The notes under the pieces: model-generated | Databases searched by the model: none | Seen by the model: only the letters and a program-made list of their open reading frames with translations | Told to the model about the DNA's origin: nothing | Program-made: the position numbers and the translations under genes | NCBI RefSeq assembly: GCF_044647545.1 | Contig: NZ_CP172818.1 | Source: Escherichia coli | GTDB lineage: Bacteria; Pseudomonadota; Gammaproteobacteria; Enterobacterales; Enterobacteriaceae | Reading direction: 5' to 3' (one strand) | Length of the DNA: 64,000 bases | In this document: piece by piece, positions 30,661 through 32,539 of the stretch | Numbering within the stretch: position 1 is the first letter of the stretch | Layout: each line of letters begins with the position of its first letter

Positions 30661-31509
30661 GTGGCGCATCAGTTAAAACTTCTCAAAGATGATTTTTTTG
30701 CCAGCGACCAGCAGGCAGTCGCTGTGGCTGACCGTTATCCGCAAGATGTCTTTGCTGAACATACACATGATTTTTGTGAGCTGGTGATTGTCTGGCGCGG
30801 TAATGGTCTGCATGTACTCAACGATCGCCCTTATCGCATTACCCGTGGCGATCTCTTTTACATTCATGCTGACGATAAACACTCCTACGCTTCCGTTAAC
30901 GATCTGGTTTTGCAGAATATTATTTATTGCCCGGAGCGGCTGAAGCTGAATCTTGACTGGCAGGGAGCGATTCCGGGATTTAGCGCCAGCGCAGGGCAAC
31001 CACACTGGCGCTTAGGTAGCGTGGGGATGGCGCAGGCGCGGCAGGTTATCGGTCAACTTGAGCATGAAAGTAGTCAGCATGTGCCGTTTGCTAACGAAAT
31101 GGCAGAGTTGCTGTTCGGGCAGTTGGTGATGTTGCTGAATCGCCATCGTTACACCAGCGATTCGTTGCCGCCAACATCCAGCGAAACATTGCTGGATAAG
31201 CTGATTACCCGGCTGGCGGCCAGCCTGAAAAGTCCCTTTGCGCTGGATAAATTTTGTGATGAGGCATCGTGCAGTGAGCGCGTTTTGCGTCAGCAATTTC
31301 GCCAGCAGACTGGCATGACCATCAATCAATATCTGCGGCAGGTCAGAGTGTGTCATGCGCAATATCTCCTCCAGCATAGCCGCCTGTTAATCAGTGATAT
31401 TTCGACCGAATGTGGCTTTGAAGATAGTAACTATTTTTCGGTGGTGTTTACCCGGGAAACCGGGATGACGCCCAGCCAGTGGCGTCATCTCAATTCGCAG
31501 AAAGATTAA
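30661..31509 (+). CDS. rhaR: AraC-family activator of rhaSR
   Basis: ORF track 30550-31509; trimmed to GTG 30661 ([11 protein letters not shown]) giving 282 aa. Confidence 0.8.
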
Positions 31510-32539
31510 TTCGCCATGCCGATGCCGACGATGTTAGCGGCGACAATAATCACCACACAACCGAGGCTCAACACCGTTACCGGACGGCGTCCTGCATTGT
31601 TCCACTCTTTCAGCACCAGCCCGACGATACCGCCGCACAATACATAGAAGCTCATATGCAGCATCCAACTGATGTAGTCATACTGCGCCGGAATGCGGGC
31701 GTGGCCCCAGGCATAGAAAAAGAATTGCAGATACCACATCAACCGCCCAGTGCTGAGAGTAACACATTGTGAATGATCAGCGGTTTTGCCAGCGAGAAGT
31801 CGGCTTTTAGCGACAAATCTTTCACTTTTGCCAGACGAATGAAGCAGAAACCGAGGTTGATGATCGCGCCGCCTCCCATGATGACAACATAGCTTGGCAG
31901 AGCGACATACAGTGGATCGACGCCCAGTGCGGCAGCGGCTTCATGCATCGGTTTTGCGGCGTTCATCGCAAAGGACATCCCGGCAGAGAAAATGCCGCAC
32001 ATCACCGCCAGCACCAGCCCTTTTTTCAGGTTGAACTCTTCGGCTTTAATGCCCATTTTGCGCTCTTTCAACTGCCCGGCGCGAGTCACAATCCCTACAC
32101 CAATCAGCGCCACCAGAACGCCGAGCAACGTCATGCGTCCGCCTTCGGTATTAATCAGAACATCGAAATTGCCGTTGATAATTGGCGTCATCAGCGTACC
32201 AACAATCAACGTAATGCCAATGGCGATGCCAATTCCCATCGACATGCCGAGATAACGCATGGTCAGGCCGTAGTTGATATTACCGATCCCCCACATAGCG
32301 CCGAACAGAAAAACAGGCAGCAGCGTAGAGAGACTAAACGAGCTGTAATACGCCCAGAAATTCGGTAGTAACAGGGCGCTGATGGCCCACGGCAGAATAA
32401 TCCACGAAACAATCCCACCGACTGACCACATGGTTTCCCATGACCATTTTTTTACTTTTTTGAACGGCGCGTAAAAACAGGCTGCACTGGCCGCGCCGAT
32501 CAAATGCCAAAATATCCCCATCGTAATCGCGTTACTCAT
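31506..32539 (-). pseudogene. rhaT: L-rhamnose-proton symporter, split by a 1-nt deletion at ~31741-31742 (run of three shortened to two)
   Basis: N-terminal ORF 31739-32539 (266 aa) ends ...LLSALGG-stop; C-terminal ORF 31506-31742 continues (L)[12 protein letters not shown] in the +1 frame; one extra base would give a continuous 344 aa protein. Confidence 0.75.

Follow-up and report, generated by a model that had tools for sequence, protein, structure and literature searches.

The L-rhamnose locus in a 64,000-nt stretch of Escherichia coli DNA (assembly GCF_044647545.1, contig NZ_CP172818.1; the whole stretch is referred to here as the window) raises the question of whether rhaT, the gene encoding the L-rhamnose/H+ symporter, has truly been inactivated by a one-base deletion beside intact catabolic and regulatory rha genes, or whether its broken reading frame has another origin. 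An earlier note on this DNA had described the disruption and offered either transporter loss with impaired rhamnose uptake or a sequencing error as the explanation. With a probability of roughly 90%, the deletion is real, a loss-of-function frameshift passed on by vertical descent that arose once in the ancestor of sequence type 648 (ST648) and became fixed in that clone.

The disrupted gene is made up of the following features, in the coordinates of the window:

31506–32539, minus strand: rhaT pseudogene (L-rhamnose/H+ symporter), 1034 nt instead of 1035, with 22 substitutions and one 1-nt gap relative to K-12 b3907
31739–32539, minus strand: 5' reading frame of rhaT in the list of open reading frames (ORFs), 266 codons and a premature stop, ending ...LSALGG-TGA
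31743–31744, minus strand: deletion site in rhaT, GG remaining of the ancestral GGG, codon 266 (Gly)
31739–31741, minus strand: premature TGA stop made by the frameshift, overlapping the next in-frame ATG (TGATG), from direct reading of the sequence and codon arithmetic
31506–31742, minus strand: 3' remnant frame of rhaT, 78 codons from TTG, or 77 from the ATG at 31739–31737

The stop comes at the codon directly after codon 266 (...GGC GGT TGA TGT GG), while the 3' remnant, in the -1 frame, begins MWYLQFFFY... and stays open through to the normal end of the gene (...GIGMAN-TAA) at 31506, coding for the rest of membrane segment 8 and for segments 9 and 10. In the RhaT equivalog family NF010021, which has 344 positions, the 5' piece covers positions 1–266 (581.5 bits) and the 3' piece positions 268–344. 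The frame break at 31741–31742 and the two open halves colinear with a 344-aa RhaT, as described in the earlier note, are thus borne out by the ORFs, the NF010021 matches and the alignment with K-12. The single uninterrupted frame of about 344 codons that characterizes RhaT (NF010021; RhaT/GlcU subfamily TIGR00776) is absent, the fragments lying in different frames. When the missing base is restored, the 344-aa protein scores 767.3 bits over positions 1–344 of NF010021 (curated cut-off 509), a full-length match that establishes RhaT ancestry but not present function; it differs from K-12 RhaT at four residues and is the same as the RhaT of enteropathogenic E. coli (EPEC) E2348/69 and of ST131, in which the gene is intact.

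Regarding the base that was lost, K-12 rhaT reads GGCGGGTTGATGTGG at this site (GGC GGG TTG ATG TGG), and K-12 and strain LR-28 both show GGCGGGTTG there. The window's own 81-base rhaT context was repaired in two ways, with G or with T, and searched against 5,426 complete E. coli genomes; the G-repaired 82-base context had an exact match in 2,184 of these and the T-repaired context in none. The nearest intact allele among the matches listed, that of LR-28, has GGG at the site and differs from the rhaT of the window by six single-nucleotide polymorphisms (SNPs) and the indel. Because of the 2,184 matches against zero and the GGG of LR-28, the lost base is a G; the parsimonious event is that the GGG run became shorter by one G, with GG still present at 31744–31743. 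The shortening of a T run (TTT to TT at 31742–31741) proposed in the earlier note is ruled out by the same matches. A more distant intact allele, that of HCM-27C-1, does read GGT TTG at the site, but it has a different 3' haplotype, its 3' segment differing from the window at eight other sites. Both repairs give Gly-Leu, and the consequence for the protein is the same.

The distribution of the lesion was investigated with a 44-base query centred on the deletion junction and unable to seed on the intact rhaT allele, which found a 100% match in exactly 59 of the 5,426 genomes and was absent from the other 5,367. The carriers originate from humans, dogs, a wild bird, a dolphin, one or more pigs, poultry, chicken meat, wastewater and a waste bin, in diverse countries and from many laboratories, and include the record named "strain ST648" as well as IMT16316, which belongs to ST648 (PMC6003029). 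An allele-specific T at gene position 339 of rhaT occurs in 60 genomes, all but one of which (59/60) have the deletion, LR-28 being the intact one; because of this association the deletion is regarded as real, of single origin and fixed in the clone. Over 14.7 kb, 46 substitutions separate LR-28 from the window, and LR-28 lies outside the clone because its flanks are about 0.3% divergent. Three non-carrier genomes have a rhaT at least 99% identical, of which LR-28 is the only one among the matches listed. The pattern is that of a clone-fixed rha pseudogene, with one small lesion, identical across the 44-base junction in 59 of 59 carriers, that is found in all members of the clone and not in their nearest relatives. 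The comparison with the rhaT of related strains suggested in the earlier note therefore supports the transporter loss at the level of the gene, with a different base lost, and turns what might have been a peculiarity of one strain into a marker fixed throughout ST648.

At least 40 of the carriers have one and the same sequence along the entire rhaT gene, and no genome carries an exactly repaired allele that might represent a revertant; the best matches to the repaired gene are the deletion alleles themselves, at 99.9%. The lack of decay among the carriers says little about constraint. As a separate observation on the history of the gene, the 3' third of the window rhaT (31506–31820) matches the B2-type allele (EPEC, ST131), while LR-28 and HCM-27C-1 share a common, different 3' haplotype and all three agree mid-gene, a pattern suggesting that these phylogroup F lineages acquired a recombination breakpoint within rhaT at some time in their past.

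Regarding the consequence for the protein, deletion of one G from the GGG of codon 266 shifts the frame and ends translation at the next codon. The hydropathy profile of repaired RhaT has ten peaks, the last three at residues 259–277, 292–310 and 323–341, consistent with the published topology of ten membrane-spanning helices (Tate and Henderson, 1993, as cited in PMC7354573). The stop after residue 266 falls within hydrophobic segment 8 (about residues 259–277), so that, judged by hydropathy, the 266-residue product would retain segments 1–7 and about eight residues of segment 8, with the rest of segment 8 and segments 9 and 10 gone. No relatives of RhaT were found by sequence in the PDB at E ≤ 1. 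The truncated RhaT is likely to be inactive, an expectation that follows because RhaT is a ten-segment carrier of the drug/metabolite transporter type and the cut lies inside one of its membrane helices.

With RhaS, RhaR, RhaB, RhaA, RhaD and RhaM kept, the lesion would probably abolish the high-affinity, proton-driven uptake of rhamnose, while slow entry by other routes and metabolism at high rhamnose concentrations may persist. RhaT has been described as the sole route of rhamnose import (PMC11434101), and in a metabolic model, by simulation only, cells lacking RhaT fail to grow on rhamnose (PMC13345470); the literature search found no growth data for rhaT knockouts beyond this simulation. 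PMC8712718, citing Hjelm (2017), reports that the rhaBAD promoter is still responsive to rhamnose in rhaT-deficient strains. High-affinity rhamnose uptake is therefore expected to be lost, with rhamnose use that would be slower or concentration-dependent rather than a clean negative phenotype. The impaired uptake anticipated in the earlier note is thus plausible, and a prediction of rhamnose-negative growth would not be a safe one, given rhamnose-positive O157 strains and the responsive promoter.

Several points weigh against reading the deletion as a plain loss of function. That the truncated RhaT is inactive is something we infer from the position of the cut, and the overlap of stop and ATG (TGATG) would, in principle, allow ribosomes to produce the C-terminal piece. 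In phenotype arrays, O157 strains whose RhaT is truncated scored as rhamnose-positive (PMC7354573), so that the physiological effect may be small, and no rhamnose phenotype for ST648 was found in the published literature. The gene also shows no secondary decay of the kind expected in an old pseudogene, which fits a recent event, although some residual constraint is possible.

The explanation that survives best beside loss of function, although it is very improbable, is that of a functional split permease, in which translation restarts at the ATG overlapping the TGA and the 266- and 77-residue pieces assemble as an active or partly active RhaT. Split fragments of lactose permease are able to complement each other. 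In the window, the TGA shares one base with the following ATG, no stop interrupts the downstream frame before its natural end, and neither piece of RhaT shows amino-acid decay; moreover, the 25 bases upstream of this ATG pair with the 3' end of 16S rRNA at -6.4 kcal/mol, close to the -6.1 of the native rhaT start and in the top 9% of windows of the gene. The Shine-Dalgarno-like pairing, however, leaves a gap of about one base to the ATG, a spacing far removed from the optimum, and the cut lies inside hydrophobic segment 8, neither in a loop nor between the two five-segment halves. The split arrangement is present only in one young clone, so the absence of decay weighs little, and the rhamnose-positive O157 strains with a defective rhaT (PMC7354573), which fit the idea, are explained equally well by RhaT-independent rhamnose entry (PMC8712718). 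The split-permease idea has no positive support. There is likewise little to recommend the broader proposal that the rhaT of ST648 lives on as a working split carrier or one of altered specificity, or its weaker version, in which loss of the transporter was positively selected, as opposed to hitch-hiking with the expansion of the clone, and aided the success of the clone; the split carrier, if real, would provide a natural example of a transporter split within a membrane helix.

A sequencing or assembly error, by which the source genome would have an intact rhaT and the missing base would be a consensus error in a short homopolymer, is rejected as practically negligible. Faulty sequence does occur elsewhere in the window, in a purine-rich stretch at 24527–25115 and as single-base dropouts at 24252–24526 and in a spacer of repetitive extragenic palindromic (REP) elements at 26571–26720. 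The same deletion is nevertheless present, with an identical junction, in the 59 independently assembled complete genomes, and RefSeq marks rhaT as a "frameshifted" pseudogene at the same coordinates in both records inspected (strain ST648 and IMT16316). Over the 13.8 kb around the deletion (about 26.7–40.5 kb) a single SNP and no further indel separate the window from strain ST648, and over 32.1–59.3 kb one SNP and one intergenic indel do so; the sequence in which the deletion lies is therefore otherwise clean and belongs to the same clone. Chance need not be considered because the lesion is a single deterministic difference, identical in 59 genomes, and the conclusion on rhaT is unaffected by the apparent local assembly damage because it rests on 59 other genomes.

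Programmed recoding, whether ribosomal frameshifting that restores RhaT or a reversible on/off switch by slippage in the G run, can be dismissed as next to impossible, for although an in-frame UGA with a protein continuing in another frame superficially resembles prfB and the lesion lies in a short mononucleotide run, the shift needed is -1 (or +2) and not the +1 of prfB, there is no X-XXY-YYZ slippery heptamer at the site (C-UGG-GCG-GUU-GAU), the arrangement is not conserved beyond one clone (59 of 5,426 genomes, with one identical junction, the other 5,367 having a plain in-frame rhaT), and the run was only three bases long and is now two, far under the lengths that slip at useful rates, with all 59 carriers in the off state and LR-28, which has six SNPs in the gene and 0.3% divergence in the flanks, being of ancestral type and not a revertant.

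The preferred reading of a clone-fixed loss of function places the rhaT of ST648 among known cases. It shares with K-12 RhaT (b3907, a rhamnose/lyxose:H+ symporter) its locus, convergent with rhaR and beside sodA, and a near-identical promoter, and differs from it in that codon 266 lacks one G and the frame is consequently divided into pieces of 266 and 77–78 codons. As in the rhaT pseudogene of E. coli O157:H7, the same transporter has been inactivated independently in a successful clone with the catabolic genes kept (PMC7354573). The lesion of O157:H7 strain OK1 is of another kind, a nonsense mutation near the N-terminus (W51*, TGG to TAG; gene at 301–1335 of the locus from that strain, annotated in RefSeq as a pseudogene with "internal stop"), in contrast to the frameshift at codon 266 in ST648. 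Lesions fixed in clones have been reported for rhaS in O26:H11, for rhaR in clonal complex 119 (CC119; O165:H25/O172:H25) and for rhaT in O157, with additional rhaB, rhaT and rhaA lesions in subclades of CC119 (PMC10132054, PMC7354573). The lesion in ST648 resembles those of O26:H11 rhaS and CC119 rhaR in being a clone-fixed single-base frameshift in one gene of the rha regulon. The O26 and CC119 frameshifts have been put forward to explain, and are exploited for, differences in rhamnose fermentation (PMC10132054, PMC7354573); they affect regulators, giving non-fermenting or delayed strains, whereas in ST648 only the transporter is hit and the regulators are intact.

Thus, the rhaT of ST648 is an ordinary lineage pseudogene that is already in public annotation and one more case of the decay of a single rha gene; it adds to the recurring, independent decay of such genes in successful E. 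coli lineages and involves no new mechanism. No paper naming both "rhaT" and "ST648" was found, and none that mentions the deletion in ST648. ST648 is a multidrug-resistant E. coli clone that has spread internationally and occurs in people, animals and wastewater. The one-base deletion provides a simple molecular marker for it, of modest practical value, and might explain part of the sugar-fermentation fingerprint of ST648 in biochemical typing. Curators of genome records should leave the frameshifted gene annotated as a pseudogene instead of "correcting" it, and should note that the base missing from it is a G.

The remaining rha genes and the promoter region of rhaT are as follows:

30661–31509, plus strand: rhaR, intact, 282 aa, 99.3% identical to K-12 (tblastn, residues 1–282, no gaps or stops), intact in strain ST648
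29751–30587, plus strand: rhaS, intact, 278 aa, 99.3% identical to K-12 over its full length
27994–29463, minus strand: rhaB, intact, 489 aa, 97.8% identical to K-12 over its full length
26738–27997, minus strand: rhaA, intact, 419 aa, 99.3% identical to K-12 over its full length
25477–26301, minus strand: rhaD, intact, 274 aa, 97.8% identical to K-12 over its full length
25153–25467, minus strand: rhaM, intact, 104 aa, 99.0% identical to K-12 over its full length
32540–32817, minus strand: rhaT promoter and rhaT-sodA intergenic region, essentially unchanged relative to K-12

That rhaBADM and rhaSR are intact, as the first description of the locus had it, agrees with the full-length alignment of all six K-12 proteins without gap or stop, at 97.8–99.3% amino-acid identity, and all six genes are also annotated as intact in strain ST648. 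The 3' end of rhaR overlaps that of rhaT by 4 nt. Upstream of rhaT, three substitutions separate the window from K-12 in 278 aligned bases (global alignment), and by its synteny with K-12 the gene lies in the context typical of RhaT, beside rhaSR and rhaBADM and with its own putative RhaS/CRP-dependent promoter.

Regarding the remainder of the rha region, the spacer between rhaA and rhaD (26302–26737) is an array of REP elements of 436 bp; the K-12 array has 450 bp and that of strain ST648 has 276 bp. Compared with K-12 and ST648, the last REP copy in the window (26571–26720) has about 20 scattered single-base dropouts, mostly of T and G, a pattern that suggests local consensus errors within repeats in addition to genuine differences in copy number. 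General indel noise near rhaT had been considered on account of 18 gap openings relative to strain ST648 in the initial BLAST alignment, and was discarded as all of these are confined to this spacer. About 6.4 kb from rhaT, positions 24527–25115 form a purine-rich, low-complexity stretch of 589 bases (A 259, G 216, T 62, C 52), which stands in the place of a 1,395-bp "carbohydrate porin" gene found between rhaM and frvA in the ST648 genomes and in LR-28, and the 275 bases before it (24252–24526) show about 18 single-base dropouts, mostly of G. None of the complete E. coli genomes searched covers the purine-rich stretch, and its longest common subsequence with the porin gene (552) is barely above that of shuffled controls (537–549); it is probably a garbled local assembly rather than biology.

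Three further differences from strain ST648 were noted. The frvB frame (ORF 22195–23652, minus strand) is open in the window, coding for 485 aa, and is annotated in RefSeq as "frameshifted" in strain ST648, where there is one extra G at window position 22904; unlike that of rhaT, this frameshift is either peculiar to strain ST648 or a mistake in its record. Positions 1–8901 are 100% identical, followed at 8894–11506 by clustered substitutions and small indels in the genes for an alpha/beta hydrolase and a hypothetical protein and in nadS and yiiE, which could be a recombined or hypervariable patch. At 59292–64000, the alignment with strain ST648 ends just past rpmE; strain ST648 has an rhsC element there, while the window has ORFs of 202, 151 and 424 aa, which we take, from the gene order of K-12, to resemble a yiiX-metJ-metB arrangement, so that members of the clone differ in structure here.
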